DNA of 32,000 nucleotides from Opitutales bacterium (GTDB lineage Bacteria; Verrucomicrobiota; Verrucomicrobiia; Opitutales; PNEW01), in assembly GCA_965219535.1 (NCBI GenBank), contig CBDCNV010000001.1:330001-362000 (forward strand), read 5' to 3'. This document shows positions 1,523 through 32,000 of the stretch, piece by piece (positions within the stretch are counted from its first letter, which is position 1; each line of letters begins with the position of its first letter). Both the position numbers and the translations under genes were made by a program. Below the pieces are notes generated by a model, which saw only the letters and a list, made by a program, of their open reading frames with translations, searched no databases and was not told the origin of the DNA.

Positions 1523-1560
1523 GCTGTTTTTAGATTAGGTCTGTATTAAATTAATAAGAG

Positions 1561-2853: not shown

Positions 2854-2973
2854 TCTGCATGTTTAATATACAATTTAATATATAATTTATAGATAAGATG
2901 CGTTATCTTATTAATTTGGTATTGGTTGTATTTTGACGTCTCAGATTTCTTATATGTGTAGCCACCGTTTTCT

Positions 2974-4701: not shown

Positions 4702-4894
4702 GGGTTATGAACGATAAGCTCAGTAGACATATATTAAAAAAATGATTAGTTTTCATTGAAATATTAAGGTCTGCTTTTAAAAACTATTACTCATCGGTTC
4801 GAAATTAATAGTGTCCAATTTTAAAATAATAACCTTAGATTATTTGTTCGATGATTCTTCTATCCACAATACAGAATGATTCTAATTAACAATT

Positions 4895-5431: not shown

Positions 5432-5468
5432 GTGATTTTTTTATTGCTAGTTTTTAATTTATAGGAAT

Positions 5469-11537: not shown

Positions 11538-11688
11538 TTTTTATCAAATTCTAAATTGTAGAGTAATAACAAAAAATAATTTAAAACAGCATTAAGCAAA
11601 AAATATGAACATTTTTTGAGTATAATATAAAAAATGGGAACCCACTTTAACAATACTTGTTCCAGGTAATTAGGGTAATAACCTGCTA

Positions 11689-15468: not shown

Positions 15469-17724
15469 ATGAGTAAATTGAAAATTCTATCGTCCCTATT
15501 TATTACACTGGGTCTGGGGATATCCAGTATTCTTAATGCTCTTCCTGAGAATCTCGAAACATTCATAGACTTTGAAAATTTTTCGGCCGAAGGCACAGAT
15601 TTTACCCTTGGCAATCCTCCGTTCACTATTCGGGTGATAAACTTTACTTTGGAAACTGTAGAGAACCCAAGTCTAGCGCGTTCGGGGACGAAGGCCCTGG
15701 TTCTTGTTCCCGGTGCTCAGGAAGGGAAAGTTTTATTCGAACGAGGAGTCAATGAGCTTCAGTTCTATGCGGCCGAAACTAACGGCGCTGGGCGAATAGA
15801 ACTAAGAGATGAAAACTTTCAAACCATATCTCAAGAAGGGATTATTAATGGCTTTACGACTGATATTAGCCCGGGTGCTAATCCTCCCTTGAGAAGTTTC
15901 GTCGCCTTTGGTGGCGATATACAGGATACATCTGATCTCAACTTTACAAATGGTATAAAAGAACTAAAGGTGATCAATGTAACGGGTCAATTTTCTCTCG
16001 ATGATATCGGGTTTACTTACGTTGATGGTCCTCCTAATAACACCGTCTTTGAAGATTTTGAGGATTTGAATAATCATATCCTCTTCTCGAATCCTGCGGA
16101 TCGGGTAAATTTTACTCTTGGTCAATCACCCTTTACAGCAACTTTTACCGGAGGCATTGCACAAATCGCTTTCGGCACCGATGACGTTAATTCACCCTTA
16201 AATTCTACCTTTCCCATTCCAGCCACCGATGCATTCGGCAGGCAAGCACCGGGAATCTGGAATATTCAAGATGATACCCTGGGAACGATCACCTTTGAAA
16301 CCCCCGCGGCCAAGGTTCAATTTTACGCGGCGGTTTTTGTTGAAGGAGACGGTGTCATCAGTGTTTTTGACACGGAAGACAACCTTCTCACTACAATTAC
16401 AGATTTACCGTTAAATATTAGATTCGAATCCGGCTTGGATTTTACTTTCTTTGATTTAAATGCTGAAGCGTTAGGAGCCCCTGGAGGAATAGGAAAAATA
16501 ACCTACCTTAATACCCCTTTGTTTGCTCCCGGTGCTGACTTTGGTGATAGCAGTATTGATGATTTTGGTTTTACCCCCCTCGGAGCCCCGGGGACTGATG
16601 GCGGACCACCTCCCGCAACTGCTCCTTCGATCACTACCCAGCCGGTAAGCCAGGAGATCGCATCCGGTGCCTCAGTGAGCTTGGCCGTCACCGCTAGCGG
16701 TGACGATCTTATCTACCAGTGGTTTACCGGCAACAGCGGTGACACCACCAGTCCTGTCGCCGGTGCGACGGGAGGTACCCTGGATACGGGCGCTCTCACC
16801 GCGAACACAAATTTCTGGGTGCAGATCATAAACGCTGGAGGCAGTGCTGACAGCGTTACCGCGGTCATCACCGTATTGGCACCGTCCGTCCCGCTCGTGC
16901 TTGATGGCTCGGGAGACATCGCCGGAGAGAACATCCAACATCCTAATGGAAACGTCTTCGACCAGATTCTGCTTACGGGTGAAACGATCCAGCTACAGGC
17001 CAGACCCGGGCAAATCACCCGTGTCTCCTTCATGGACGAAACCGAGGACATTGTACAGGTCGAGTTCTCAGGCGTCGGTAATTTTACCGTTACCCTCGAC
17101 CCGGCAACCTTCCTGCCACCGGCTATTCCCCCACGCTACAACCAGGCCGTAGAGTACGTGACCGGTAAGCCGGGCGTGGTCATCGATGGAGCGGACGCCA
17201 ATACCTTCTTCAGTATTTTCACCGTAGGATCGATTAACGCAGTGAACCAGGCGCTCTTCCCCGAGGGACAGGTCTACGACGCGCAGGCGGACGTGACCCT
17301 GGTGGAAGTTGTCAATTCTACGGGCATGGGCGGCATGCAGCTGTCGAACGCCGCGTTTAGTGGAAGCACGGGCAAGGTGGGTGTCGATGCGCGCGGGGTA
17401 CCGATCGCGGTGCGCTTAACGGTAGGCGACATCGATGCTGATGGTGACGCGGTACCACACCTGTTATTTGGATCAGGTTCCTTCACCGTAGCAGCCGGCA
17501 ACCCAGGGTTGCGGATCACGGGAGGTGACTTATTACAGACAAACGGGGCCGCAGTTGTGGTGGCGGAGAGTGGATCGACGACGACCGGGTTTGACACTCT
17601 GATCACACAGAACAATTTCAAGTCCGACAACACTCCTCAGCCGACCCTTAGCATCGATGCCACTTTCGCCAACGAAGATGGGGATGAGATTATGGTGACA
17701 GTCGATGAGATCACGATTGAGTAA
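15469..17724 (+). CDS. Secreted multidomain protein: signal peptide, two copies of an unrecognised module, an Ig-like domain and a G/A/V/T-rich C-terminal domain
   Basis: AGGAA Shine-Dalgarno-like motif ending 5 nt before the ATG. Signal peptide MSKLKILSSLFITLGLGISSILNA. The module motifs F-x-DFE, FTLG-x-(S/P)PF, (V/L)QFYAA and DD-x-GFT occur twice. Ig-like segment TTQPVSQEIASGASVSLAVTASGDDLIYQW. DIDADGD Ca-binding-like motif. The first ~370 aa are paralogous to the next gene. Confidence 0.85.
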   Translation: MSKLKILSSLFITLGLGISSILNALPENLETFIDFENFSAEGTDFTLGNPPFTIRVINFTLETVENPSLARSGTKALVLVPGAQEGKVLFERGVNELQFYAAETNGAGRIELRDENFQTISQEGIINGFTTDISPGANPPLRSFVAFGGDIQDTSDLNFTNGIKELKVINVTGQFSLDDIGFTYVDGPPNNTVFEDFEDLNNHILFSNPADRVNFTLGQSPFTATFTGGIAQIAFGTDDVNSPLNSTFPIPATDAFGRQAPGIWNIQDDTLGTITFETPAAKVQFYAAVFVEGDGVISVFDTEDNLLTTITDLPLNIRFESGLDFTFFDLNAEALGAPGGIGKITYLNTPLFAPGADFGDSSIDDFGFTPLGAPGTDGGPPPATAPSITTQPVSQEIASGASVSLAVTASGDDLIYQWFTGNSGDTTSPVAGATGGTLDTGALTANTNFWVQIINAGGSADSVTAVITVLAPSVPLVLDGSGDIAGENIQHPNGNVFDQILLTGETIQLQARPGQITRVSFMDETEDIVQVEFSGVGNFTVTLDPATFLPPAIPPRYNQAVEYVTGKPGVVIDGADANTFFSIFTVGSINAVNQALFPEGQVYDAQADVTLVEVVNSTGMGGMQLSNAAFSGSTGKVGVDARGVPIAVRLTVGDIDADGDAVPHLLFGSGSFTVAAGNPGLRITGGDLLQTNGAAVVVAESGSTTTGFDTLITQNNFKSDNTPQPTLSIDATFANEDGDEIMVTVDEITIE

Positions 17725-17960
17725 GACGATCAGCCGTCGCCCGCGCAGTAGCGGGGCTATGGCCGACAGGTTGCCGAATGTGGGTTATATCTAACGGTTA
17801 TCACTTATAAACTACTTAAACGTAATCGTTCACCTTCAAACTTGGCCGGCAATAGGTCTGCGGTTATGGATTGAAGAGGGTTGTAGACTTATAAATGTAC
17901 ACTGATAACTGTAGACCGCTTAACAATGATAGTATTTTTATATATATCCACCTGCACCGT

Positions 17961-17989
17961 TTGACACGCTTCTTAGGTATTTATATATT
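17961..17989 (+). promoter_or_regulatory. Near-consensus sigma70-type promoter for the second paralogue
   Basis: -35 TTGACA (17961-17966), exactly 17-nt spacer, -10 TATATT (17984-17989). It lies 20-26 nt upstream of the GTG 18010 / ATG 18016 starts, with AAGGG between. Confidence 0.5.
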
Positions 17990-18009
17990 AATCGGAATTC
18001 GAGCTAAGG

Positions 18010-19296: not shown

Positions 19297-20106
19297 ATGG
19301 CCAATAAACCTTCTACCATGGTTCACGAGGATTTCCATTATGGAGATGAAGAAAATGCACATTACCTTAATGAAGGGTATCACATCTGTGATAAATTTTT
19401 GACAGATGAAGCGCTTGCTTATTGTCGGGCCAAAATCGATCCGATGACAGCGCAAGTCTGTGATGAACTCCCGACACATATGATTGTCTCCGCCCATCAA
19501 CTGGGAGCACAGTGGATGATAGACCTGGCTACTGAGCCGAAATTGTTAGACCTCCTGGAAAAACAAGTCGGACCCAACATTGTCCTCTGGTCCTCTCATT
19601 TATTATGCAAACAACCCCATACGGGGGAGGCTATTCCCTGGCATCAGGATGCTCCCTACTGGAATGTATCAAAGAATCTTTCCGGTGGAGTGTGGATACC
19701 ATTTGATGATATCGATGAAGAAAATGGAGCGATGTCCATCATTCCCGGGTGGCATAATAGAGGTACTCTAAAAAGACTTTACGTTGACGAAAAATTCTTT
19801 TCAGAGGAAATTGATCCAGCTGTTTTACCGGAAAATATAGATGAAGTGAAGGTGCAATACAATGTACGCGCGGGGCAATTGTGTGTTCACGATACGATGA
19901 CTCCCCATAACTCAGTACCCAATAATTCAGACCGATGGCGCCGCGTGCTCGTTTTGCGCTATATGGGCGCGGAAGATGAAATGGTAGAAAAGGACTATCA
20001 AGATTACCGTGATAACAGTGATTTCCGTCGAATATATTACCTTGTTCGGGGCCATGATATAATGAATCGAGGTCTGAACACGGATCTCTTGCCTGCTGCC
20101 GTTTAA
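19297..20106 (+). CDS. Phytanoyl-CoA dioxygenase (PhyH) family Fe(II)/2-oxoglutarate dioxygenase
   Basis: AAGGA Shine-Dalgarno-like motif before the ATG. HxD iron motif in IPWHQDAPYW. Distal His in VHDTMTPHNSVPN. Arg (RWRRVLVLRY) typical of 2OG binding. 269 aa. Confidence 0.75.
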   Translation: MANKPSTMVHEDFHYGDEENAHYLNEGYHICDKFLTDEALAYCRAKIDPMTAQVCDELPTHMIVSAHQLGAQWMIDLATEPKLLDLLEKQVGPNIVLWSSHLLCKQPHTGEAIPWHQDAPYWNVSKNLSGGVWIPFDDIDEENGAMSIIPGWHNRGTLKRLYVDEKFFSEEIDPAVLPENIDEVKVQYNVRAGQLCVHDTMTPHNSVPNNSDRWRRVLVLRYMGAEDEMVEKDYQDYRDNSDFRRIYYLVRGHDIMNRGLNTDLLPAAV

Positions 20107-20116
20107 ATAAGACGGC

Positions 20117-20137
20117 CGAACTTTTTAGATAAGTTCG
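20117..20137. terminator. Hairpin between convergent genes (possible bidirectional terminator)
   Basis: cgaactt (20117-20123) / aagttcg (20131-20137), a 7-bp perfect stem with a 7-nt loop, between the PhyH stop (20106) and the sixA stop (20151). No clear U-tract on either strand. Confidence 0.35.
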
Positions 20138-20150
20138 TTGCTGATCCGGT

Positions 20151-20636
20151 TTACCCAGCGTATAATTGGGAGTCGAGCATCCATTGGACAACCCAGAGCA
20201 GATTGTCATCTTCATCTATGGAGTAGCCCTCGAATGCGATAAGTCCGCAGGTATCCAAGTTAAATAAGATGGGGCTTTCTTCCCTTGTAAGAAGGGATGA
20301 AGCAAGGATTGCGAGCTGTGGTAAATGTCCTACAAGCATAATATTTTTTTCTTCCTCTTGTAATTGATCGAAGAGTGTTCGCACATTATCCGAGGGTGCG
20401 AGTCCCTTGATTTCTTTCAAAGGTATATCGAGATTCATCTCAGAGTTCAATAACTGGGCTGTTTCGCCTGTTCGAACAAGGGTGCTATGACGGATTTCAT
20501 CGATGGCGATGACGTCCGTTGCTTTTAATAATTTCGCCAAAGCAATTACTGTATTTCTCCCTCTCTCACTCAATATGCGCTCTTCGTCGGGATAAGTTGA
20601 TTGGGCTTCCGCGTGTCTTAGCAAGTATAGCTTCAT
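20151..20636 (-). CDS. sixA: Phosphohistidine phosphatase SixA (histidine phosphatase superfamily)
   Basis: MKLYLLRHAEA catalytic RHxE motif at the N-terminus, and VGHLP. I start at the internal ATG at 20636 rather than the track start at 20711. The 25-aa extension has no family similarity and would overlap the upstream gene. Confidence 0.8.
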   Translation of the reverse strand: MKLYLLRHAEAQSTYPDEERILSERGRNTVIALAKLLKATDVIAIDEIRHSTLVRTGETAQLLNSEMNLDIPLKEIKGLAPSDNVRTLFDQLQEEEKNIMLVGHLPQLAILASSLLTREESPILFNLDTCGLIAFEGYSIDEDDNLLWVVQWMLDSQLYAG

Positions 20637-20649
20637 ATGAAAAAATATT

Positions 20650-21108
20650 TTATTTGGCGCTCTGTGTGTGGAGCAGACCACTGAGAAACTGTTCTTTCCA
20701 ATGATACGCATTGAGCAGCGATGGGTTATCTTCTCCCAAAATCTTCATGGCGACATAGAGCGCTTCAATTGAGGCGAGTCCACCTTCAGGGTCTTTAAAA
20801 ATTTTACTTATTCGCGGATAAGCAGTTATTATATTTCCAGGTAGAGTGCGGCGTAAGGGATTTCCAACAATACAGGATTCGAGCTTAGGAATAAGACGCC
20901 ATGTGCTGTCAAGAATGAGAATCGGGTGTCCGGAATCTTGTGCAGTTAAAAGGGGTGCGTCGAGAGTGAGGAGAATATAATCGGTTGCATCAAAACGGAA
21001 ACTTTCGTGAGCATTAAAAAAAGTAATGCCGGTCTGCTTATGGAGTGGAGCCAGAGTACATTTACTTTTACGCTCTTTGGAGTGACGAATTACGACGACT
21101 TGTACCAT
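20650..21108 (-). CDS. Short DTW/Tsr3-like (TDD superfamily) putative aminocarboxypropyl transferase
   Basis: 152 aa. KSKCTLAPL near the N-terminus, LDSTW (DTW-type motif), RRTLPGNIITAYPR, ASIEALYVAMKILGE and YHWKEQFL. From memory, the spacing and order resemble archaeal/eukaryotic Tsr3 more than long bacterial DTW (YfiP/TapT) proteins. Confidence 0.55.
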   Translation of the reverse strand: MVQVVVIRHSKERKSKCTLAPLHKQTGITFFNAHESFRFDATDYILLTLDAPLLTAQDSGHPILILDSTWRLIPKLESCIVGNPLRRTLPGNIITAYPRISKIFKDPEGGLASIEALYVAMKILGEDNPSLLNAYHWKEQFLSGLLHTQSAK

Positions 21109-21272
21109 TGTATTAATAGCATAGCAGGAGTTTAATGTTAGCTAAAAGTGTAATTTAAGACCATAACAAATGAAGAATTTCGTAAGGTATTTTATTCCCA
21201 ATCTGATGCATGGGATGATCGCAGTCATGCATAATTCTTGACACACTAAATAATTAATATTCAGGATCAGCA

Positions 21273-22052
21273 ATGGCGAAGATAAAAGAAAAGATTGCAC
21301 TTGTTACGGGTGCCGCTGACGGCATTGGGTTGGCCATTGCTAAACGATTTGCTTCGGAAGGGGCAAAGGTGGCGATGGTCGACATCCAGGAAAAAAAATG
21401 TGTAGAGGAAGCAAGAGCTATTGAATCTCTGGGAGGTGAGGTGAGACCCATTTCTTGCGACGTCGGAAATTCTGAAAGCGTTTCCGCAGCGGTCGAAGAG
21501 ACGTTAGAGCATTTCGGTAAAGTTGACATTATGTGCAATAATGCAGCTATTGCTTTAGGTGTGACAATCACCGAGATGTCTGAGGAAGATTGGAATAAAG
21601 TAATTAATATAAACCTATCGAGCGTCTATCGAGGTTGTAAGTTTGTCATCCCGCACATGAAAAAAGGGAATGGTGGATCGATTATTAATATTGCGTCGGC
21701 TGCAGCACACGTTGGGCTTGATACTTTCACTGCTTATACAGCGGCAAAGGGCGCGATCATAGCTATGACCCGACAGCTGGCGAAAGAATTTGCCCCTCAA
21801 AATATTCGCGTAAACAGTATATCCCCGGGTACTATTAATACACCGATGAATGCCAAGTTAATGGCGGAGCCCGGGGGTGAAAATCTTATGGCGTCCTGGG
21901 TAAGTATGCATCCGATGAATAGAATAGGGGAGCCCGATGAAGTGGCTGGTGCCGCTCTTTTCCTCGCTTCCGATGATTCGAGTTTCGTTACCGGCGCGGA
22001 GCTCATGGTTGACGGGGGGCTTACGATCAATCCGGGATTTGACGAACAATAA
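21273..22052 (+). CDS. Short-chain dehydrogenase/reductase (classical SDR)
   Basis: TGAADGIGLAIA cofactor motif, NNAA, and catalytic S...YTAAK (YxxxK). 259 aa. Confidence 0.85.
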   Translation: MAKIKEKIALVTGAADGIGLAIAKRFASEGAKVAMVDIQEKKCVEEARAIESLGGEVRPISCDVGNSESVSAAVEETLEHFGKVDIMCNNAAIALGVTITEMSEEDWNKVININLSSVYRGCKFVIPHMKKGNGGSIINIASAAAHVGLDTFTAYTAAKGAIIAMTRQLAKEFAPQNIRVNSISPGTINTPMNAKLMAEPGGENLMASWVSMHPMNRIGEPDEVAGAALFLASDDSSFVTGAELMVDGGLTINPGFDEQ

Positions 22053-22075
22053 CTCACTCATATATTTTAAAGCAC

Positions 22076-22918
22076 ATGGAACCTCTTCTCAATTTAGATT
22101 CTGTCAGTATCTTTCATTTTGCCCGCTACTCCAAAATCCGTCTTAACCACCCGGAAGGCATAATGGTAGATCCGGATGGAAATATATGGTGTGGTGGCGA
22201 ACATGGTGAATTATACCGTATCAGTAATGATGGTACAGAAATCGAGATCTTAGCAAAGACCGATGGTTATCATCTCGGGTTAGCCATGGATTCTCAACGG
22301 CGCATCTATGTTTGCGACACAGGTCATAAGTGCGTAACGGTGTTTGATGAGAAGGGGAAAGAGCTAGATCGTCTTGTTGGCAGTGACGGTGATGATAAAC
22401 TGACCGTTCCCAATTACGTGGTGGTAGATGAAAAGCGTAACGCACTTTATGTGTCCAACAGCCTGGAAAACGGTCCGGGGGTATGGCGATTTGATCTGGC
22501 AACCGGTGCAAGTCAGCTATGGATGAACGAAGATTGCTTAGTTGCTAATGGAATAGCGTTGTCCCTGGATGGGAATACCCTGTATGTGGTGGAAAGCTAT
22601 TTACCCGGAGTCACTGCCGTGCCTATAAATGAAGACGGTAGCGCAGGTCCGAAGCGACTTCATGTCAGCATGACTGAGGGTCATGTTCCTGATGGACTCG
22701 CCGTTAATACTAAGGGACAGCTCTTTATCACCTGTTTCGACCCTAACCGTATTTTTCTTGTTAACGATAAGGGAGAGGCAGAACTTCTGGTTGAAGATAA
22801 GCTTTATTCTAAGCTCAATCACCCGACCAACATTGCCTTACGCAATGATCATGAGCTCTTTGTCGCCAGTTTGGGCGGTTGGCATATATGCCTCGTTGAT
22901 CTCTCCAGCTTGTATTAA
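22076..22918 (+). CDS. SMP-30/gluconolactonase/LRE-family beta-propeller (putative lactonase)
   Basis: PEGIMVDPDGNIWCGG, repeated D-x-G-x-(L/I)-(Y/F)-(V/I) blades, ANGIALSLDGNTLYVVES and PDGLAVNTKGQLFI. 280 aa. Starts 24 nt after the SDR stop. Confidence 0.75.
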   Translation: MEPLLNLDSVSIFHFARYSKIRLNHPEGIMVDPDGNIWCGGEHGELYRISNDGTEIEILAKTDGYHLGLAMDSQRRIYVCDTGHKCVTVFDEKGKELDRLVGSDGDDKLTVPNYVVVDEKRNALYVSNSLENGPGVWRFDLATGASQLWMNEDCLVANGIALSLDGNTLYVVESYLPGVTAVPINEDGSAGPKRLHVSMTEGHVPDGLAVNTKGQLFITCFDPNRIFLVNDKGEAELLVEDKLYSKLNHPTNIALRNDHELFVASLGGWHICLVDLSSLY

Positions 22919-22972
22919 AATCTATCTATTTAAAACCCGATAGATTCATCTCAGTTTTTTAATCCCAATTAA

Positions 22973-23839
22973 TCAACCACGAGCGGGTTCGGTCATCTTC
23001 TCCTTGGCCTTGCGAACTTCTTCGGGAAGATGGTCTTGATTGGCGAGAACCTGTTCGAGGTGTCGCATCCTTTCGGGTCCCGCTGTTCGCAGCATCGCCT
23101 CACCATAGGTTGAATCATTCCAGAATCGGGCATGTCCACTGATATTATCCCGAAGATGCTGTAGATGTTCAGTTTTATACCTGCTCGAACAATTGATCGT
23201 AAACATCCGCCTTCTTTTTCCACCACCCCAACTGCTGTGTTTGGTGCTGTGATTGAATATTCCGACATCACCCGGGTTTGTCTCTAGAGCGACGGCGGGA
23301 ATATCTTTCCCCTTCAGGCCAAAGAGTTTCTGCTCGTCCGTTCGCACTGAATTTTTTACTTCCTGTTCCAGGGCTTCCGCATAACTATCATTTAGTTTAT
23401 GGCTTCCCGGAATCACCCGCAATGCGCCTGTTTCGCGTGTCAATGGATCGAGATAAAATGCCACTTTGTACCATTTGACAACTCGTTTAAATTCGAAGAA
23501 TCCACCATCGGAGTGCCAGGCAGTATTGCCCACATAATAATTTCCATCGCTTCCATTATAGTTGTAGTCTTCGCCGAGAAGACTGGTCATAATACCGTCT
23601 ATTCGGGGATCATCAATAAGTGCAGAAAGGTATTCACTCTGATCAATAAAAGGGGTGATGCATGATCGCGCAGTACCTTCATGGGGTTTACCATCATGCC
23701 CTCCACCGTGATTGGTCCACACCCCTTCGAACTCGGCAGTTATCTTATTGATATCATTTTTAAATAAACCGGGAAAAGTGAGATAGCCAAAATTTTCAAT
23801 AAATGCCATCTCTTCAGGTGTGAGGACTTTCTTTTCCAT
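22973..23839 (-). CDS. PhyH-family Fe(II)/2-oxoglutarate dioxygenase
   Basis: HxD motif in TAWHSDGG. Distal His in IFNHSTKHSS. Arg-rich strand KRRRMFTI. 288 aa. Confidence 0.7.
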   Translation of the reverse strand: MEKKVLTPEEMAFIENFGYLTFPGLFKNDINKITAEFEGVWTNHGGGHDGKPHEGTARSCITPFIDQSEYLSALIDDPRIDGIMTSLLGEDYNYNGSDGNYYVGNTAWHSDGGFFEFKRVVKWYKVAFYLDPLTRETGALRVIPGSHKLNDSYAEALEQEVKNSVRTDEQKLFGLKGKDIPAVALETNPGDVGIFNHSTKHSSWGGGKRRRMFTINCSSRYKTEHLQHLRDNISGHARFWNDSTYGEAMLRTAGPERMRHLEQVLANQDHLPEEVRKAKEKMTEPARG

Positions 23840-23901
23840 AAGAGTTTCAAATTAAAACATTACTTTAAAGTGTAGTATTTTGTAAAATAACAACGGCCCC
23901 A

Positions 23902-24654
23902 TCATTTTACAATATCGAACTGGCGTGCTACCACCCAATCGGGTCGCGGGTTGTCCACAGGTCGCGGCTTATTATCAATACTATTATAGGAGATGATAAA
24001 TGATTTACGGGGCAGGGGGGACATATTGTGACTGGAGCCGTGTGCAATATTACAATCAAAGAAGAGCACGTCACCGGGGACGCCTGTGATCTGACGAATA
24101 TTATCTTCCTTTACTTTTTGCATGAGCGTTTCCCTGTCGATACACCACTGTTTGTAGCTGGTGGTTACAGTATCCGCATAATGTTCCTGTCGTCCCCAAT
24201 GATGAGATCCTGAAATGACCATGAGACAGCCGTTGTTGACGGTCGCCTCATCGAGAAATACCATTACGGAAACCAGTTTTGGATCTACTCCATCCCACAT
24301 CCAGTAACCATAGTCCTGGTGCCACAACCAGACTGCTCCCTCAAAAGCTTCCTTAGCATTAAGCTTACTATGCCAAATATAGACATCATTATTTATTATC
24401 TGTTTTACAGGTTCGTGGATTTTAGGATGCTTAATTAATTTTTTAAAAGCGGGGTTATAGCGATGCGCCAGAAATACCTGGCGGACGGCACCGGTTTTTT
24501 CCCTTTCACGGTGCATGAGGTCTTCCTCATCTTTTCCATCCATTAATTGAGCAACCGCATTATTTAGCTCCGACGTTTCTTCGCTCGTTAACAATCCAGG
24601 TATAAAAAGGAATCCGGTTTCAGCGTATTCATTCAACTGCTCTTGTGTCCACAT
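23902..24654 (-). CDS. PhyH-family dioxygenase related to ectoine hydroxylase (EctD-like, variant signature)
   Basis: Collinear with EctD-type proteins. WLWHQDYGYWMWDGVDP occupies the place of the EctD signature F-x-WHSDFETWH-x-EDG-M/L-P. HGSSHNMSPLPRKSFIISYNS matches the distal His and Arg region. Confidence 0.7.
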   Translation of the reverse strand: MWTQEQLNEYAETGFLFIPGLLTSEETSELNNAVAQLMDGKDEEDLMHREREKTGAVRQVFLAHRYNPAFKKLIKHPKIHEPVKQIINNDVYIWHSKLNAKEAFEGAVWLWHQDYGYWMWDGVDPKLVSVMVFLDEATVNNGCLMVISGSHHWGRQEHYADTVTTSYKQWCIDRETLMQKVKEDNIRQITGVPGDVLFFDCNIAHGSSHNMSPLPRKSFIISYNSIDNKPRPVDNPRPDWVVARQFDIVK

Positions 24655-24898
24655 TTTATAATAATTGTCGGCTGTTCACAGCGGGTAAAATCGTTTGTGC
24701 ATGTATATATAATGTCAATTGTCGATAGCTTGCTTTAATGGAAACAGTTAGCTGTAGCTGCTGTCTCTTCTTTATAATTCTTATGGTCTACTATCTTAGC
24801 TTAAGGATATACAACTTGCAATACTCACCATAAACTTTCTATTGCATAACGCTTTTGTCATGGATTTATATTTAAAATTTCAATTGTTTTCATCTCGT

Positions 24899-25354
24899 AT
24901 GCTAAAAGTCATAATCACAATTTTGATATTTTTTTTAAGTTTAACGTCTATTCTTTTGGGCGAAGAATTGACCAATCTGGAATTAAAAAAGGGAACAATT
25001 GAAATTAACGTCCAGAATCTTCGAAATGATAATGGTTCCGTAAGAATAGCGCTTTACGCATCCAGTGATACATTTTGCATAAAGGGTAAAGAATTTCGAA
25101 GTGCAGTGATTAAACCGAATGAGAAAAAAGCAATAACACAATTTACTGAAATCCCCTATGGTGAATTTGCGATTGCCCTTTATCATGACGAAAACAACGA
25201 CGATAAATTTAAGATGGGCTTGCTTTATATTATTTTTAGAGAACGGTACGGATTTTCTAATGATGCCAGACCGTTGTTTAGTCAGCCGGACTTCGAAAGG
25301 GCTAAATTCATTCTCGATTCTGAGACTCAATCTATCACCATAACAGCTCAATAA
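24899..25354 (+). CDS. DUF2141-family secreted protein
   Basis: Signal peptide MLKVIITILIFFLSLTSILLG. GSVRIALYAS and AIALYHDENNDDKF...RYGFSNDA...FERAKF match DUF2141 motifs as I recall them. The track start TTG at 24842 is replaced by ATG at 24899, which opens the signal peptide. Confidence 0.65.
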   Translation: MLKVIITILIFFLSLTSILLGEELTNLELKKGTIEINVQNLRNDNGSVRIALYASSDTFCIKGKEFRSAVIKPNEKKAITQFTEIPYGEFAIALYHDENNDDKFKMGLLYIIFRERYGFSNDARPLFSQPDFERAKFILDSETQSITITAQ

Positions 25355-25512: not shown

Positions 25513-27429
25513 CTATCGGAACAAAACTGCTTTCGCAGTTCTTGTTTCCAATGCATTATAGCGAGTTAAAATCTGGTTATAAATTGATTCGAAGTCTAGC
25601 CCATTGAGTGTCCGTAAATCATCTACCGAAGATCCGTGGTCAATAAATCGATCAGGCCAGCCAATCCGATTTACAGGTGTTCGACAATTGGATTCATTAA
25701 GCGTTTCGAGGACCCCACTTCCAAAACCACCCGTCAGGACATGATCTTCAATCGTTACAATCAATTGGCTGGAATTTGCCTGTGAGATGAGGAGGTTCGT
25801 ATCGATTGGCTTAGCATAACGTGCATTCACTACACCAACCGAAATTCCCTCTTCTACTTTCAGTTTTTCCGCCAGTTTTATCGCTTCAACTATCCAGGGT
25901 CCTAACGCCCATATATTGATATTATTACCTTCTTTTATGATCTCCGCTTCCCCGATATTTAAAATTGCGGGTTTCTTTTTAATTTGAACACCTGTTCCAT
26001 TGCCACGGGGATAACGAATAAAAGTGGGCTGTTGGGTCTGAAGGCTGGTCCAAAGCATGTCGACCAATTCGTCTTCATCTTTAGGTTGCATGACGATTGA
26101 ATTCGGGATGCAACGCAAATAAGCAATATCGAATAAACCGTGGTGTGTTGGTCCGTCCTGGGGGGATAACCCCGCTCTATCCATGCAGAAGGTAACGGGA
26201 AGATTTTGGACACCTACATCGTGAATGATCGGGTCGTAAGCTCGCTGCAGCATGGTCGAATATATTGCGCAAACGGGCTTAAAGTCTTGAGTCGACAAAC
26301 CAGCGGCAAATAAAACTGCATGTTCTTCTGCCATCCCCACATCAAAAAATTGTTTAGGTAATTCATCGTGCAGTAGTTTCAAGCTTGTTCCCGTGGACAT
26401 CGCAGCAGTGATGCCAACGATTTTGGGATCGCGCTTAGCAAAGCGAACCATGGCTCGACCAAATACATCCTGAAATTTTGGTGGTGTACCGGGTTTACTG
26501 GGTTTGCTTTTGCCCGTCGCAATTTCAAATGGACCAGGACCGTGGAATGTTTCAGGATCTGCAATGGCGGGTTCATATCCTTTTCCCTTTGTGGTGAGAA
26601 TATGCAGAACAATTGGTTTCTCGTAGTTTTTGCAGAACTCGAGATAATGACTGATTCTTTCGAGGTCATTGCCATCAATGGGACCGAGATAACGCAACCC
26701 ATATTTTTCAAAAATAGAGGAGGAGACAATAAAGTCTTTGGCGTCCTTTTTAGCCTTTCTTCCAATTTTTATAATGGATTCACCCCCGGGGATCTTTTTC
26801 AGGAAAGCTTTTACATCCTGATCAAGCCGATTGTAGATCGGATTTGTGATGAGTTCATTGAGGTATTTGGCGGTGGCACCAACATTTTTAGATATCGACC
26901 ACTTATTATCGTTCAGTACCACAATCAACCTTTTCGTATGAGCGGTAACGTTATTCAAGGCTTCCATCGTGATGCCGCAAGTGAGTCCGGCATCACCTAG
27001 AACCGCTACTACATGTTCATCACTTCCACGTAGGTCTCTCGCCGCGGCCATCCCCAAAGCTGCTGACAAACCTGTTCCCGCATGACCCGCACCGTAGCTA
27101 TCATGAGGACTTTCAGCGCGACTGAGAAAACCACTCGTTCCACCCGTCTTGCGCAATTTTTTAAAAAGCTCGCCCTGGCGACCGGTGATTAATTTGTGAA
27201 CATAACCCTGATGTGAGACATCAAAAGTAAACTTGTCCTGGGGAGAATCAAAAACCCGATGCAGGGCAATGGTGAGTTCAACCACTCCGAGATTAGGTCC
27301 GATATGACCACCATTTTCCGATGTGACCGCAATAATCTTTGCTCTGATTTCTTCTGCAAGTGAAGAGAGTTCGTCAAAGGTTAGAGCTTTTATGTCAGCT
27401 GGTTCTTTAATACGATCGAGAAGAGACAT
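25513..27429 (-). CDS. dxs: 1-deoxy-D-xylulose-5-phosphate synthase
   Basis: 638 aa. N-terminus MSLLDRIKEPADIKALTFDELSSLAEEIR, GGHIGPNLGVVELT, the TPP motif GDAGLTCGITMEALNN, and transketolase-like pyrimidine-binding and C-terminal domains. Confidence 0.95.
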   Translation of the reverse strand: MSLLDRIKEPADIKALTFDELSSLAEEIRAKIIAVTSENGGHIGPNLGVVELTIALHRVFDSPQDKFTFDVSHQGYVHKLITGRQGELFKKLRKTGGTSGFLSRAESPHDSYGAGHAGTGLSAALGMAAARDLRGSDEHVVAVLGDAGLTCGITMEALNNVTAHTKRLIVVLNDNKWSISKNVGATAKYLNELITNPIYNRLDQDVKAFLKKIPGGESIIKIGRKAKKDAKDFIVSSSIFEKYGLRYLGPIDGNDLERISHYLEFCKNYEKPIVLHILTTKGKGYEPAIADPETFHGPGPFEIATGKSKPSKPGTPPKFQDVFGRAMVRFAKRDPKIVGITAAMSTGTSLKLLHDELPKQFFDVGMAEEHAVLFAAGLSTQDFKPVCAIYSTMLQRAYDPIIHDVGVQNLPVTFCMDRAGLSPQDGPTHHGLFDIAYLRCIPNSIVMQPKDEDELVDMLWTSLQTQQPTFIRYPRGNGTGVQIKKKPAILNIGEAEIIKEGNNINIWALGPWIVEAIKLAEKLKVEEGISVGVVNARYAKPIDTNLLISQANSSQLIVTIEDHVLTGGFGSGVLETLNESNCRTPVNRIGWPDRFIDHGSSVDDLRTLNGLDFESIYNQILTRYNALETRTAKAVLFR

Positions 27430-27828
27430 CTTAATTTTCAGGGAAAAAATCGTTAGAAATTAAGTAAATTATTATTATTCTTTTATAACAATGACACAAT
27501 TTTAAAACGCTATAATAACAAACCTCACTCTAATTATTTAATCTCATCATGGTAAGTTATTTAGAGCATAATTGGGAGGTTAAAGGTTCTATTCATTCTA
27601 TTGCAACAAATTTTGTAAATATTACCATTTTGTAATTTTCCAGTTAGAAACAACGACCAAGTGAAGCTACGCGGTTTACCTCTTCATCTTTCAATTTCCA
27701 ACAATATAAAAATAGATATAGCGTACAATTTCTCAGTTTTCAGCATTTCTCACTCTTTTTCTGAGTCACCCTGGAATAGAAAGTTGAATTTGAAGGTATC
27801 ATTCTTATATCAATAAATACGTATCTTT

Positions 27829-28557
27829 CTAAAAACTTTCCGGTAAATAATTAAGAAGGATGTTCTCTGCCTGCCTCATTGCCTCAGGATCGTCCACGTC
27901 GATCCAAAATTTACCCGAGAATTCAGCCGCATTCACACGACCCTGCGAGGCTAAGATACATACCCCTCCGCTGAGGGTAGTATTGTCGTGCTGCTCAGCG
28001 CTTTGTTCTAATGCTTCAAAAATAGCGGGTGTGCACAGGAAGATACCGGTGTCAAAACCATTATAATTTGCCAGTCCCTTCCCTATTTCCAAAACTTTCC
28101 CTTTTTCTATTTTAACGCGAGTTACGTCGTCGAGATTTACCGAGGGATTGTCGATTGCTCTATCTACGGCCAAATTTATTTCGTCGTGCGGTAAAGGAAC
28201 TTCCATTAATTCGTGGAGCGTATTCGGGTCGAAGATATGATCTGACATAAGAAGAAGAAAAGGTTCCTGTATATAGTCTCTCGCTTTCAACACCGATAGG
28301 CCATTTTCCTGTTGCCAATCTTCATTGAAGATAGCTCGAATGGGAATCTTTAGTCGCGCGGATAAATCCTTCAAAAATGAAGTGACATTTTCATTTTGAT
28401 AACCTGTGACGACAAAGAACTCATCAACATCCGCAACCATGGCGGAACGGATGACCCGTTCAATTAAAGGAACACCAAAAACGGGTATAAGCGGCTTGCT
28501 GTTACCCCGTAACTGAAGCCGACTGCCTTTTCCGGCTGCTATGATCAGGCATTTCAT
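27829..28557 (-). CDS. Nucleotidyltransferase resembling CTP:inositol-1-phosphate cytidylyltransferase (IPCT)
   Basis: MKCLIIAAGKGSRL NTP-binding loop. MSDHIF, GFDTGIFLCTPAIFEAL and WIDVDDPEAMRQAE are collinear with the IPCT domain of the archaeal/Thermotoga IPCT-DIPPS enzymes as I remember them. ATG at 28557 has GAAGGTGA 8 nt upstream. The track start GTG at 28569 is also possible. Confidence 0.7.
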   Translation of the reverse strand: MKCLIIAAGKGSRLQLRGNSKPLIPVFGVPLIERVIRSAMVADVDEFFVVTGYQNENVTSFLKDLSARLKIPIRAIFNEDWQQENGLSVLKARDYIQEPFLLLMSDHIFDPNTLHELMEVPLPHDEINLAVDRAIDNPSVNLDDVTRVKIEKGKVLEIGKGLANYNGFDTGIFLCTPAIFEALEQSAEQHDNTTLSGGVCILASQGRVNAAEFSGKFWIDVDDPEAMRQAENILLNYLPESF

Positions 28558-29668
28558 GGTCCGGATCACCTTCTGTCATCTCAACGATAAACTTTTCCAT
28601 CATATGAAAAGCCTCATCATCAGTAAACTGGCGAGGTGGATGTTTACAGAAATATGCTGCAGGTGCGTAAAGAATGCCACCTTGCCCGCGGTTTAAAGCT
28701 AGTTTTGCGCAGCGGATAGCATCGATAGCGACACCAGCCGAATTTGGAGAATCTTCTACCGAAAGCCGAAGTTCAAGATTCATCGGCACATTTCCAAAAA
28801 GCAGACCTTCCATGCGGATAAAACAAACTTTATTGTCATTCTGCCAGGGCACGTAATCACTCGGACCGATGTGGATGCTGTCTTCATCCATTCGACAGGC
28901 GGTGACTGACTGAACGGCTTCAGTTTTTGAAATCTTTTTAGAAGCGAGACGACTGCGACTGAGCATGTTAAGAAAATCCGTATTGCCTCCGGTATTAAGC
29001 TGGTAAGTTTTTTCCAATTTAACACCGCGTTTTTTAAATAAATCAGTCAACGCTCGATGAGTGATTGTCGCCCCCAGTTGAGCTTTAATATCATCACCGA
29101 TTATGGGTAGATTTTTTTGAGCGAATTTCTTAGCCCACTCAGGATCGCTGGCAATAAATACGGGTATATTATTGATAAATGCTACTTCGGCATCCAATGC
29201 GCATTGGGCATAAAATCGCGTCGCTTCCTCCGACCCGACGGGCAGATAATTGACAAGAATGTCAGCGCCGGAATCTCTGATTACATCGACAACTTCCTTA
29301 TCTGATGGTTCAGTTTCTTCGGATTTAATGAAAGTCTGTTTATCCTTGAAATCCTGCATATGGGGGGCAAACCCATCGAGCAGTTTTCCCATTTTCACCC
29401 TCACACCCGATGGTGGTAAATCTCCACAAAAAATTTGCGTGCAATTCGGTTCGGCAAAAATCGCTTCGTTTACATCTTTGCCTACTTTTCGTTTATCGAT
29501 ATCAAAGGCAGCGACTACTTCGATATCATTAGGTTTATAATCGCCAATCTCACTGTGCATTAGACCAATCGCACGCTCCAGATTTTCATCCTGATAAAAG
29601 TGAATTCCCTGGATCAATGAGCTGGCGCAATTACCTAGCCCGACCAGGGCAATTTTAATTTTTCTCAT
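28502..29668 (-). CDS. ino1: myo-inositol-1-phosphate synthase (inositol-3-phosphate synthase)
   Basis: 388 aa. Rossmann start IKIALVGLGNCASSLIQGI, NTGGNTDF, SKKISKTEAV and the catalytic-region motifs of prokaryotic MIPS. The ~25-aa non-conserved tail overlaps the next gene. Confidence 0.85.
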   Translation of the reverse strand: MRKIKIALVGLGNCASSLIQGIHFYQDENLERAIGLMHSEIGDYKPNDIEVVAAFDIDKRKVGKDVNEAIFAEPNCTQIFCGDLPPSGVRVKMGKLLDGFAPHMQDFKDKQTFIKSEETEPSDKEVVDVIRDSGADILVNYLPVGSEEATRFYAQCALDAEVAFINNIPVFIASDPEWAKKFAQKNLPIIGDDIKAQLGATITHRALTDLFKKRGVKLEKTYQLNTGGNTDFLNMLSRSRLASKKISKTEAVQSVTACRMDEDSIHIGPSDYVPWQNDNKVCFIRMEGLLFGNVPMNLELRLSVEDSPNSAGVAIDAIRCAKLALNRGQGGILYAPAAYFCKHPPRQFTDDEAFHMMEKFIVEMTEGDPDHEMPDHSSRKRQSASVTG

Positions 29669-29673
29669 CGCAT

Positions 29674-29702
29674 ATTAATTTTCATAAATCACGTATTGTC
29701 AA
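29674..29702 (-). promoter_or_regulatory. Candidate sigma70-type promoter directly abutting the MIPS start codon
   Basis: On the minus strand: TTGACA (29702-29697), 17-nt spacer, ATTAAT (29679-29674), then atgcg and the ATG at 29668. If used, the transcript would be leaderless or nearly so. It could be chance in AT-rich DNA. Confidence 0.3.
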
Positions 29703-29750
29703 GATAATGACAACAACGTAATGTTGTGCAACGAAGTAGAATCAGAGAAC

Positions 29751-30734
29751 TTAATCCCGCTCTAAAAACCATGCCACTGCATCTTTTAGCGCTTCGTTTG
29801 CAGGTCTTGGTTTATATCCTAATTCCCGTTTGGCTTTGGCCGTGGAAAAATACATCTTCTTTTTTGCTAAACGAACACCATCCACGGTTACTAATGGTTC
29901 TTTAGCGTGCGTCAACCGCGCCAGACACTCAACAATATAGGCAATAGGCAATACGAAGTTGTGGGGGATCTGGAATAGTGGTGGAGCATTTCCAGTAACT
30001 TTTGAAATTTCTAAAAGTATTTTATGTAAACTCATATCTTCACCACCTAAAATGTAACGTTCACCGATCTTTCCCTTGTCAAAAGCAAGCAGGTGACCTT
30101 GTGCAACGTCATCGACATGAACAATATTTAAACCCGTATTCACATAAACAGGAATCTTTCCGTTAATCGCATCGAGAATCATACGTCCCGTAGGTGTCGG
30201 TTTTATGTCTCGTGGACCCACGGGTGTCGAAGGGTTAACAATAATGACGGGTAAATTTTCATTCTTAATTAAAGCATCTACTTCTTGTTCAGCCAGAAAT
30301 TTTGAACGTTTGTAATGGCCGATCATATCATTGAGAGATACGGGAGTCGTTTCATCAGCAGGGGTTTCATCTTTATTTATACCGAGAGTTGCAACGCTGC
30401 TCGTGTAGACGATACGCTGAGTACCGCATTGCGCAGCCGCGGTCATCAGATTACGAGTACCGTCGACATTGTGGTGGTAAATTTCCGAAGGATTCGGTAC
30501 CCACAAACGATAGTCCGCAGCTACGTGGAATAAAGAATCGCAATCCTTTAAGGCCCTGAGGAGAGAGTCTCGATCAGTTAAATCTCCGATTACGATCTCA
30601 ACGTCCAACCCATCGAGATTACGTTGATCGCTGTTTTGACGGATGAGGGCACGTACCTTTTGGCCTTCTTTAAGCAGCTGCCTGAGAACGGCAGAGCCTA
30701 AAAAGCCGGTAGAACCTGTAATTAAAGTTGTCAT
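29751..30734 (-). CDS. hpnA: Hopanoid-associated NAD-dependent sugar epimerase/dehydratase
   Basis: TGSTGFLGSAV Rossmann motif, HVAADYRLW, YKRSKFLAE (YxxxK), PTPTGR, VHVDDVAQGH, and a C-terminal VTVDGVRLAKKKMYFSTAKAKRELGY block. All are typical of the HpnA subfamily, and it sits next to shc/hpnG. Confidence 0.8.
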   Translation of the reverse strand: MTTLITGSTGFLGSAVLRQLLKEGQKVRALIRQNSDQRNLDGLDVEIVIGDLTDRDSLLRALKDCDSLFHVAADYRLWVPNPSEIYHHNVDGTRNLMTAAAQCGTQRIVYTSSVATLGINKDETPADETTPVSLNDMIGHYKRSKFLAEQEVDALIKNENLPVIIVNPSTPVGPRDIKPTPTGRMILDAINGKIPVYVNTGLNIVHVDDVAQGHLLAFDKGKIGERYILGGEDMSLHKILLEISKVTGNAPPLFQIPHNFVLPIAYIVECLARLTHAKEPLVTVDGVRLAKKKMYFSTAKAKRELGYKPRPANEALKDAVAWFLERD

Positions 30735-30908
30735 CGATAAGTTTCCATTTCGATTTTCAGTCTGTTAAAAAATACTTTTTGGAGTCAAAGTGAGGACAGT
30801 TGCGATTTCGATCAAGAGAGTTTCTCAATAGGCCCGGTGTTAAATAACATCATGTGCTTTGGAGCTGTTATTCGTCACTTATAACTTACCCTTCAATCAA
30901 GTAAGAGC

Positions 30909-31661
30909 TTACTGACAAAGAAAATTGTTGGGAGAAATTTTTGCAACTTCCTTTAATGTTTTTTTGGCCGCTGAGAATTGATGTCCTAATTGTGCTAAAG
31001 CGATCCAATCGAGTGGGTGTAGCATTGCCTGTTTGATAAGAGAAAGTCTTCTTACTTGTCCACCGGTATCCAGCGAATTTAAAATACTTTGTGGAATTCG
31101 TCGATTACTGGTATCTGCGATTGCTCTAACCGTGAGAAAAATTAATTTATGTTTGTGCGCAACTTTGGCAATAGCCGCGCTCTCCATATCGACTGCTATC
31201 GCGCGCGATTTTTCATACAGCAAATTTTTCTCATCAGGATCAGCTATAATTTGACTACGTTCCAATAAACAATCCTTACGGGTATGTAATTTATCCGATA
31301 ATAGAGGGTATAGACGATTATGCCAATCTCTGTCTACTGGTAATACAATTCCACTTTCACATTGAATTTGCTCAGGAAGAAGGAGACTCCCCGCTTCAAG
31401 TTCACTCGTTAACCCTGCTGCGCAGCCCCAGCTAAGCAGGGCACTTACACCTTGCTCAACTAATTGTGTCGCCGCTTCACCAGCGCGTTCAGGACCAGCT
31501 CCAGAAAGAAAGAGAGTGACGTCATCTTTTAAATTTAAAGAACTGCCGCTTTCAATTGTCTGGTTGCTAAGACTCTTTAGTTCTTCAGACAGTGCTACGA
31601 TAATTCCCAGTTTCACAAGCTTCCCGCTGAGAGAAGAGTTTTGTAACGTGCGAGGGCCCAT
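30909..31661 (-). CDS. hpnG: Hopanoid-associated phosphorylase/nucleosidase (PNP/UDP family)
   Basis: KLGIIVALSEE, SWGCAAGL and VDMESAAIA motifs of the nucleoside phosphorylase fold, immediately downstream of shc. The track start ATG at 31661 overlaps shc by 49 nt. In-frame GTG at 31616 forms a GTGA start/stop overlap with the shc stop and is an equally good start. Confidence 0.75.
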   Translation of the reverse strand: MGPRTLQNSSLSGKLVKLGIIVALSEELKSLSNQTIESGSSLNLKDDVTLFLSGAGPERAGEAATQLVEQGVSALLSWGCAAGLTSELEAGSLLLPEQIQCESGIVLPVDRDWHNRLYPLLSDKLHTRKDCLLERSQIIADPDEKNLLYEKSRAIAVDMESAAIAKVAHKHKLIFLTVRAIADTSNRRIPQSILNSLDTGGQVRRLSLIKQAMLHPLDWIALAQLGHQFSAAKKTLKEVAKISPNNFLCQ

Positions 31662-32000
31662 AGCGGAAAGTACTTATCGTAACCATGGTACTTTAAATAA
31701 AATACGCGGGAAAACCCCGGTGCCGTGAATTCCTCATCATCCCAAAGTCCGGATGGAGTTTGCGTGCTCAGCAAGAAATCTATGCCCCGTTCCGTCTCAA
31801 GGGTATTACCTTCTCCGGCCGCCATTAGTCCGAGAAGTGCCCATGCGGTCTGGAAAGAATTACTTCTCGACGCTTGTCCGCGAGAGCTGATGTCTGCATA
31901 AGAATCATTACTTTCACCCCATCCGCCGTCATCGCGCTGTTTGGATTTTAGCCAGCTGGCGGCCTTCCGCATGAGCGGATCGTCGCCGCCAATCCCTGCT
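31613..32000 (-). CDS. shc: Squalene-hopene cyclase, C-terminal end (gene continues beyond the window)
   Basis: The frame is open to base 32000 (…GIGGDDPLMRKAASWLKSKQRDDGGWGES…). It has QW-type repeats (QRDDGGWGE, TPSGLWDDE) and the characteristic C-terminus GFSRVFYLKYHGYDKYFPLWALARY. Confidence 0.9.
   Translation of the reverse strand, partial: AGIGGDDPLMRKAASWLKSKQRDDGGWGESNDSYADISSRGQASRSNSFQTAWALLGLMAAGEGNTLETERGIDFLLSTQTPSGLWDDEEFTAPGFSRVFYLKYHGYDKYFPLWALARYKTLLSAGSL

Follow-up and report, generated by a model that had tools for sequence, protein, structure and literature searches.

A stand-alone MIPS–IPCT gene pair orphaned within the hopanoid/dxs block of a marine Opitutales bacterium

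The closest described counterpart of the locus presented here is the di-myo-inositol phosphate (DIP) pathway of hyperthermophiles. The locus consists of adjacent genes for myo-inositol-3-phosphate synthase (MIPS) and a stand-alone CTP:inositol-1-phosphate cytidylyltransferase (IPCT), and it lies in a stretch of 32,000 nucleotides (the window) of contig CBDCNV010000001.1 (assembly GCA_965219535.1, positions 330,001 to 362,000), which belongs to a marine Opitutales metagenome-assembled genome (MAG). With the DIP pathway (Archaeoglobus fulgidus IPCT/DIPPS, structures 2XME and 4MND) it has in common the first two enzymes, the IPCT fold and the signature motifs, and Thermotoga maritima (4JD0) likewise has a stand-alone IPCT. 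In contrast to the hyperthermophiles, however, the host is a mesophilic marine member of the Opitutales, no DIPPS is fused, adjacent or found, and the genes are placed inside a block of hopanoid genes and dxs.

Operons of MIPS with IPCT-DIPPS have also been predicted in cold marine Thaumarchaeota and Atribacteria, where they were read as DIP synthesis (PMC7265257, PMC10773090, bioRxiv 10.1101/536078). Those operons are non-thermophilic and marine, as are 65 fused bacterial loci in our survey, but their enzyme is a fused bifunctional protein, whereas the window is without the transferase half. In Bacteroides vulgatus and Prevotella, a putative alternative inositol-lipid cluster comprises a nucleotidyltransferase (NTP transferase), a CDP-alcohol phosphatidyltransferase and a HAD hydrolase near MIPS (Heaver et al. 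2022, PMC9246714). This putative cluster and the window both have MIPS beside an NTP transferase proposed to make CDP-inositol, and a lysyl-PG-synthase-like (flippase-like) gene is found near the cluster, as in Opitutales and Nitrospinales relatives of our locus. The window differs in having neither the transferase nor the HAD gene, and its neighbours are hopanoid and not sphingolipid genes.

As for the hopanoid side, the genes of typical hpn clusters with methylerythritol phosphate (MEP) pathway genes, namely shc, hpnG, hpnA, hpnH, hpnB, ispH and dxs, are all present here, but MIPS and IPCT are not recognised members of such clusters, hpnN is missing and no hpnI, hpnJ or hpnK is found nearby. 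The occurrence of dxs and ispH within hpn clusters is well known. Both DXPS and ispH are also listed among shc neighbours in a preprint (bioRxiv 10.1101/2025.07.29.667474). Relatives of the window have a CDP-alcohol transferase (family PT2) and a radical SAM gene (rSAM1) beside HpnL and HpnN (TIGR03476, TIGR03480), whereas the window locus is without HpnL, HpnN, PT2 and rSAM1.

We describe the locus as an orphaned, stand-alone MIPS–IPCT unit, set among hopanoid genes and dxs, of the bacterial branch of the IPCT/DIPPS (CDP-inositol) system. We consider it fairly probable (roughly 0.6) that this is a real unit whose hopanoid-side position was inherited, that the neighbouring PT2 was deleted, and that its CDP-inositol is used by a transferase encoded elsewhere.

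The MIPS–IPCT pair

The minus-strand order given by a first-pass annotation of the window (shc, hpnG, hpnA, MIPS, IPCT, spacer, dxs) was confirmed in full by the list of open reading frames (ORFs) and by profile searches, and the 399-bp length it gave for the spacer is exact. The IPCT, by contrast, has 242 residues from its ATG and not 243. The features are as follows (positions in the window).

31613–32000, minus strand: 3′ end of shc (squalene-hopene cyclase), TIGR01507 with 163 bits over the last 112 residues, Pfam SQHop_cyclase_C; continues past the window edge
30909–31661, minus strand: hpnG (hopanoid-associated nucleosidase/phosphorylase), TIGR03468 with 179.5 bits (cut-off 187.1), Pfam PNP_UDP_1
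30735–30908, no strand: hpnG–hpnA intergenic region, site of the missing hpnN (blastn against L096 and L089)
29751–30734, minus strand: hpnA (hopanoid-associated SDR, 3-beta-HSD-like), TIGR03466 with 504 bits (cut-off 368)
28502–29668, minus strand: MIPS, 388 aa, Pfam PF01658 (Inos-1-P_synth) with 122 bits, TIGR03450 with 455 bits (cut-off 638)
27829–28557, minus strand: stand-alone IPCT, 242 aa, IPCT half of NF041135 with 144 bits
27430–27828, no strand: IPCT–dxs spacer, 399 bp, AT-rich (GC 0.28)
27589–27614, minus strand: conserved element beginning AAAATTTGTTGCAAT, about 190 nt ahead of the dxs start codon and followed by about 90 nt more of conserved sequence
25513–27429, minus strand: dxs (1-deoxy-D-xylulose-5-phosphate synthase), TIGR00204 with 715 bits
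25385–25512, minus strand: deletion scar, a dxs–rSAM1 intergenic remnant plus about 25 first rSAM1 codons, with stop codons inside
24842–25354, plus strand: DUF2141 gene, Pfam PF09912 with 93 bits; by synteny the conserved right-hand boundary of the putative ancestral dxs-rSAM1-PT2-DUF2141 block

By profile comparison, sequence search of solved structures and fold search, the 242-residue protein is a genuine IPCT. Its best NCBIfam match is the bifunctional IPCT/DIPPS family NF041135, over profile positions 1–219 of 419 and with 144 bits against a cut-off of 580, and the next family, Arch_glmU, follows with 85 bits; the Pfam matches are NTP_transf_3 and NTP_transferase. A phmmer search of the PDB places A. 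fulgidus IPCT at the top (2xme, E 9.5e-24; also 4mnd), with T. maritima IPCT (4jd0) at 3e-12, MurU and GMPP at about 1e-11 and the choline-phosphate enzyme LicC at 1e-3. The AlphaFold2 model (pLDDT 91.2) finds 4mnd, 2xme and 4jd0 as its best Foldseek matches, with a TM-score of 0.81–0.84 to 4mnd and 4jd0. Other sugar-1-phosphate nucleotidyltransferases trail the IPCTs by one or two orders of magnitude in E-value; since they rank this closely behind, the fold search was set aside as a weak discriminator, and the assignment is carried by the sequence evidence. Taken together, these rankings bear out the earlier identification of the protein as an IPCT, as opposed to a transferase for choline-phosphate or sugar-1-phosphates.

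Although identity to the A. fulgidus IPCT is only about 27%, the two proteins have in common the motifs AAGKGSRL, KPL, NG.S, M.DH, DTG.F and W.DVD, the first of which is the nucleotide-binding signature (G-x-G-x-R-L), intact at residues 7–14. There is no C-terminal DIPPS domain: the protein stops at residue 242 and the motif D..DG..AR..G...D...D is absent from it. From family membership, the enzyme is predicted to convert CTP and inositol-1-phosphate to CDP-inositol and pyrophosphate. The last 56 nt of MIPS overlap the start of the IPCT gene, which is translationally coupled to MIPS; an alternative GTG 12 nt upstream of the ATG would give 246 aa.

Lost transferases and a retained pair

The separate CDP-alcohol transferases of the Opitutales fall into two families, PT1 and PT2, each of about 380–420 aa, with an N-terminal cytoplasmic domain that is devoid of GxGxR (motif scan) and an intact CDP-alcohol motif. 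They match best the DIPPS half of NF041135, followed by archaetidylinositol-phosphate synthase and PIP synthase, and when the N-terminal domain of PT2 was compared by hhalign, as a candidate degenerate IPCT domain, with the IPCT domain, an E-value of 0.06 and a probability below 1% were obtained. PT1 is found divergently upstream of MIPS in Nitrospinaceae and in Opitutales with an IPCT 58–62% identical to that of the window, and PT2 adjoins IPCT or dxs in closer relatives. As an observation on its own, an Opitutales locus (L087:12243-14974) has genes for a phosphoenolpyruvate mutase, a second NTP transferase and a class-V aminotransferase between PT2 and dxs. These are phosphonate genes of the aminoethylphosphonate type, which hints at a phosphonolipid, and not an inositol lipid, as the possible product of one of the transferases.

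The closest comparator of the window is locus L096 (loci of relatives are cited by such numbers), with DXS 95% and MIPS 92% identical. Its gene order, shared with L089, L008, L091 and L092, is shc-hpnG-hpnN-hpnA-MIPS-IPCT-dxs-rSAM1-PT2-DUF2141-PhyH-PhyH, with the reservation that the L008 contig begins inside MIPS and is not scorable for the hopanoid-side order; that of the window is shc-hpnG-hpnA-MIPS-IPCT-dxs-DUF2141-PhyH-PhyH. The hpnN gene, present in L085, L089, L096 and L094, is located between hpnG and hpnA in L089 and L096, and where these two have about 2.6 kb with hpnN, the window has about 85 nt (30769–30853, blastn). The gap between dxs and DUF2141 in the window measures 158 bp, and about 134 nt of it are 67% identical to L091. 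This remnant corresponds to the dxs–rSAM1 intergenic region plus the first rSAM1 codons, and its frame-0 translation resembles the rSAM1 N-terminus, with stops inside. Thus, no acceptor transferase is visible in the window because two deletions took hpnN and the rSAM1–PT2 pair.

A differently decayed remnant, with 490 nt of rSAM1 and two PT2 fragments, is found in L090, and no remnant of either gene in L003. All three genes (hpnN, rSAM1 and PT2) are present in L085, L089, L096 and L094, and all three are absent in the window and L006, in L090 and in L003. In a tree of MIPS, IPCT and DXS, these transferase-less lineages are interleaved with the transferase-bearing ones. Since the remnants differ and the lineages interleave, we conclude that the transferase was lost more than once and independently. 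The first-pass annotation had taken the missing acceptor as a pointer to new chemistry; judged by gene order and remnants, however, its absence from the locus is a case of gene loss, the lineage-specific deletion of genes that the relatives keep, and is not evidence of new chemistry.

Despite the deletions, MIPS and IPCT are kept. The ratio of non-synonymous to synonymous rates is 0.07–0.12 for IPCT and 0.05–0.10 for MIPS, in the same range as for dxs and hpnA (for hpnG, the values of L089 and L003 were disregarded as artefacts of the alignment). In L006, the scar is identical to that of the window, and between these two the IPCT gene has 10 synonymous and 6 non-synonymous changes (P neutral 6e-4) and the MIPS gene 19 and 7 (P neutral 3e-8). 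The window IPCT departs from its 87 homologues at only 3 columns of at least 90% conservation, and its cluster at 90% identity or more has 14 members, at least 11 of them full-length, and the contigs that carry full-length copies reach 5.05 Mb. We considered whether IPCT evolves in a relaxed or accelerated manner in the transferase-less lineages and rejected this, as relative-rate tests with a proper outgroup gave no consistent acceleration. Given that purifying selection continues after the deletion, both genes are retained in the absence of PT2, and the species probably still makes CDP-inositol.

The IPCT–dxs spacer was examined as a possible transferase remnant and rejected, since neither tblastn nor blastn gave similarity to PT2. 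L090, L089 and L008 likewise retain a spacer of about this length. The AAAATTTGTTGCAAT element recurs in each of the seven loci that make up the clade with an IPCT identity of 71% or more; in one of them, L085, the upstream gene is PT2 and not IPCT. The element is probably a promoter or regulatory site of dxs, or may be a long leader; an Rfam scan of the window, the element included, gave no match, and scans of the window for promoter and terminator consensus sequences stayed at chance level. Because the element is kept whatever gene precedes dxs, dxs is probably transcribed separately from IPCT.

Distribution of the module and its hopanoid context

A scan of one genome per species, annotated by BLAST against reference proteins, resulted in 79 IPCT loci. 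In 65 of these, one protein combines the IPCT domain with a DIPPS-like CDP-alcohol transferase domain, and a further 9 have a separate transferase gene within 10 kb of IPCT, so that such a domain or gene is coupled to IPCT in 74/79 loci; MIPS adjoins IPCT in 58. Fused proteins occur in Nitrospinota, Desulfobacterales, Acidobacteriota/Bryobacterales, Gammaproteobacteria, Gemmatimonadota, Bacteroidota and other groups, and the stand-alone IPCTs form two separate clades, in Opitutales and in Nitrospinaceae. Based on this survey, the pair is part of a widespread MIPS–IPCT–transferase module of bacteria that are mesophilic and for the most part marine. Only 2/79 loci, both from close Opitutales relatives, have hopanoid genes next to IPCT, and MIPS and IPCT do not recur across taxa as conserved constituents of hpn clusters. 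With hopanoid adjacency this rare and transferase coupling this frequent, the conserved synteny with hpn genes on which the first-pass annotation had staked its proposal is largely refuted. Opitutales with IPCT 58–62% identical have MIPS-IPCT-dxs and also rSAM1-DUF2141-HpnL, without shc or hpnG. Since the locus of this clade is without shc and hpnG and dxs keeps an element of its own, hopanoid adjacency is weak functional evidence in this window.

Several arrangements in the survey deserve mention in their own right. An apparent MIPS-IPCT fusion in a single uninterrupted frame is found in two Nitrospinaceae and one Syntrophaceae MAG (L029:8834-10789, L061:4115-6034 and L084:8834-10753). A Bryobacterales chromosome (L074) has three fused IPCT-DIPPS copies about 5 kb apart and equally similar to the query (937-2292, 5964-7319 and 10991-11689), which looks like a tandem segmental repeat. 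In Oscillatoria sp. SIO1A7 (L093:8630-10723), a stand-alone IPCT homologue with 55% identity follows a PIG-V-like (Mannosyl_trans2) membrane glycosyltransferase, which is the sole hint of an acceptor there, as no MIPS or CDP-alcohol transferase was found within 10 kb. Three Nitrospinales loci (L068:5476-8683, L079:8216-12025 and L080:8206-11968) have a stand-alone IPCT with three neighbours, a short PF01066-like gene, an HpnL-like gene immediately upstream and, downstream in the opposite orientation, PT1, and MIPS is not adjacent; one of these genomes, OZ253496.1, has a fused MIPS-IPCT/DIPPS operon at another site (L039).

A metagenome scan with PT2 gave 80 loci, 21 of which have at least 3 kb on both sides. 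Among these 21 long loci, an HpnL-like gene is found within 5 kb of PT2 in 12 (11 by BLAST, L136 by NCBIfam), a PT1-like gene in 9, a small radical SAM gene in 9 and an HpnN-like RND gene in 5; IPCT is near PT2 in 3, MIPS in 2 and shc in 1. The metagenome RND genes match HpnN best (518-561 bits) and the flippase-like genes HpnL (137-163 bits), in both cases below the cut-offs, whereas HpnL (313-315 bits) and HpnN (945 bits) of the Opitutales exceed them. MIPS, IPCT and PT2 are collinear in L174. A recurrent set is observed in L136:1-11912, L113, L116, L121, L122, L135, L104 and L130, with PT1-like and PT2-like paralogues, often overlapping, an HpnL-like flippase-like protein, a radical-SAM enzyme of about 320 aa and an RND transporter resembling HpnN; the set is common across metagenomes of soil, peat and sediment.

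Regarding the surroundings of the pair, shc in the window occurs with hpnG (its score just under the cut-off), hpnH, hpnA and hpnB, as is expected of an hpn cluster. Full-length shc, read in the extended source-contig locus L001, has 655 aa and is overlapped by hpnG over 49 nt. Beyond the window end, the source contig (362.8 kb) carries sqs, ispH, hpnH (546 bits), hpnB (407 bits, above the cut-off) and an MlaC/HpnM-like gene. The nearest public genome is the Opitutales MAG chromosome OY829953.1, with IPCT 98% identical. When L003/L007 (IPCT 81% identical) are compared with the window, the hpnB, hpnH and ispH proteins are 93–99% identical and those of sqs, shc and hpnG only 53–74% (L001 coordinates 185-3581 versus 3822-7649), a mosaic that points to half the hopanoid cluster having recently recombined or moved between lineages. 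Directly downstream of DUF2141 are three PhyH-family (phytanoyl-CoA dioxygenase-like) genes and genes for an SMP-30/gluconolactonase-like protein, an SDR and a histidine phosphatase (window 19297-24654 and 21273-22918); their order is kept in all close relatives and they might act on an isoprenoid or lipid substrate. The GC content is about 0.43 (range about 0.40–0.47), with 0.50–0.53 at window positions 16000–18000, within a 751-aa Ig_7-domain gene (15469-17724).

Possible fates of CDP-inositol

The reading we favour supposes that MIPS would convert glucose-6-phosphate to inositol-3-phosphate, which IPCT would combine with CTP to give CDP-inositol, and that the ancestral Opitutales order was probably shc-hpnG-hpnN-hpnA-MIPS-IPCT-dxs-radical SAM-PT2-DUF2141, from which this species would have lost hpnN in one deletion and rSAM1 with PT2 in another. 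CDP-inositol would then pass to a phospho-alcohol transferase encoded elsewhere. The likeliest product would be an inositol-phosphate head group on a membrane lipid, followed by a solute of the di-myo-inositol-phosphate type; the head group is somewhat likelier because the partner transferases keep the company of lipid genes. The adjacency to hopanoid genes in the window is not evidence for hopanoids as the acceptor.

That the window itself has no CDP-alcohol transferase, as had been claimed, was borne out by tblastn with 11 DIPPS-like queries, which found no PF01066-type gene in the window or 6.5 kb beyond, by a six-frame scan of the window for D..DG..AR..G...D...D without a match, and by Pfam searches of the remaining window ORFs, which gave no LicD, PAP2 or HAD substitute for a phospho-alcohol transferase. 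Within 10 kb on either side of the locus, no DIPPS-type transferase was found.

Several observations weigh against the favoured reading. First, profile searches with PT1 and PT2 placed no member of either family, among the best 120 matches listed, on contigs bearing a window-type IPCT (4.98, 5.05, 2.86, 2.16 and 1.25 Mb), and a more distant PF01066 protein could escape such lists; as no consumer turned up on those contigs, a transferase encoded elsewhere stays an assumption. Second, PT2 occurs without MIPS or IPCT in L094, L095 (a Methylomirabilota contig with a core of rSAM, PT2 and an HpnL-like gene alone) and most metagenome loci, so that it is not a strict partner of IPCT and its loss may be irrelevant to the use of CDP-inositol. 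Third, throughout the clade with an IPCT identity of 71% or more, every locus with readable flanks has MIPS and IPCT enclosed by dxs on one side and hpnA or hpnN on the other. In the Moanabacter-type Verrucomicrobium L094, PT2 is flanked by hpnN and dxs and has no inositol genes near it, and L136, from an unrelated lineage, is a true hopanoid cluster with the order hpnH-hpnG-shc-PT1-PT2-HpnL-like-rSAM-B12 rSAM-hpnM-hpnN. With inositol genes throughout that clade in hpn clusters and transferases in L094 and L136, a functional link to hopanoids is conceivable.

Among the alternatives, a compatible solute is the one that survives best, although we regard it as unlikely. Here, a distant DIPPS would join CDP-inositol and inositol-1-phosphate to DIP, serving as an osmolyte or piezolyte, and the hopanoid neighbours would be coincidental. 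The closest characterised homologues are indeed the IPCTs of the DIP pathway, MIPS with IPCT/DIPPS is the canonical DIP operon, found in fused form in 65/79 relatives, and the same genes were read as DIP synthesis in the cold marine Thaumarchaeota and Atribacteria. However, no DIPPS-type protein is among the listed matches on the contigs of the window species, and the separate transferases of the Opitutales are found with HpnL-like flippase-like, RND lipid transporter, phosphonate and PLD-type genes. To our knowledge, no mesophilic bacterium has been shown to contain DIP.

A second alternative, which we judge quite improbable, is the decoration of a hopanoid or isoprenoid lipid, in which phospho-inositol would be transferred from CDP-inositol to bacteriohopanepolyol or another lipid of the cluster. 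Relatives would do so through PT1/PT2 with the HpnL-like, radical-SAM and HpnN-like proteins, and the window species would need a different enzyme. Consistent with this are the position of MIPS–IPCT inside the hpn/dxs block across the clade with IPCT at least 71% identical (L008 being unscorable), the hpn context of PT2 in L094 and L136, the association of PT2-like genes with the HpnL-like, PT1-like, radical-SAM and HpnN-like ones, and the collinear genes of L174. In addition, the CDP-alcohol phosphatidyltransferase is the sixth most frequent family near shc in a supplementary table, where it is left uninterpreted and where the count may be inflated by uneven sampling, and the function of HpnL is called unknown in the same preprint (bioRxiv 10.1101/2025.07.29.667474). 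On the other hand, shc is near only 2/79 IPCT loci and 1/21 long PT2 loci, and the loss of PT2, rSAM1 and hpnN while MIPS–IPCT stay under selection separates the two gene sets. Searches of the literature for hopanoid with inositol and hpnA, and for MIPS with hopanoid, found no linking paper and no phospho-inositol hopanoid. We know of no such compound.

The possibility that the pair is a decaying relic of a pathway disabled by the PT2 deletion, with MIPS–IPCT persisting for lack of time or MIPS alone being needed, fits the loss of the adjacent transferase in three lineages (window/L006, L090 and L003) and the failure to find either family on the contigs with window-type IPCT, but is highly improbable given purifying selection along the whole of IPCT, also after the deletion, a heavily decayed scar next to an IPCT that is intact in at least 11 cluster members, and no excess of changes at conserved IPCT columns.

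Pairs of DIPPS-like transferases occur inside hopanoid clusters of at least two unrelated lineages, and irrespective of the acceptor in the window species, a CDP-alcohol-dependent step in some hopanoid clusters is a real lead. It is a lead on the relatives; the window species itself lost the genes in question. One could imagine PT1/PT2 with the HpnL-like, radical-SAM and HpnN-like proteins as a hopanoid-cluster module which, in Opitutales, would make and export a phospho-inositol triterpenoid or other isoprenoid lipid from the CDP-inositol of MIPS–IPCT. We consider this a long shot; if true, it would mean a new lipid class and a first assigned role for HpnL, and the window species would be a natural knock-out of the transferase/export half that kept CDP-inositol for a second acceptor.

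For the biology of the group, the argument from a missing acceptor to new hopanoid chemistry is mostly explained away, since this locus lost the acceptor gene that close relatives retain. The genes for CDP-inositol are widespread in mesophilic marine bacteria of at least 10 phyla, and in the window species MIPS and IPCT are under selection without a detectable DIPPS-like partner, so that CDP-inositol presumably has some acceptor there. For lipidomics, nature provides nearly isogenic strains that differ in whether they carry the set of PT1/PT2, HpnL-like, radical-SAM and HpnN-like genes, and comparing them could bring the function of HpnL within reach of a test.

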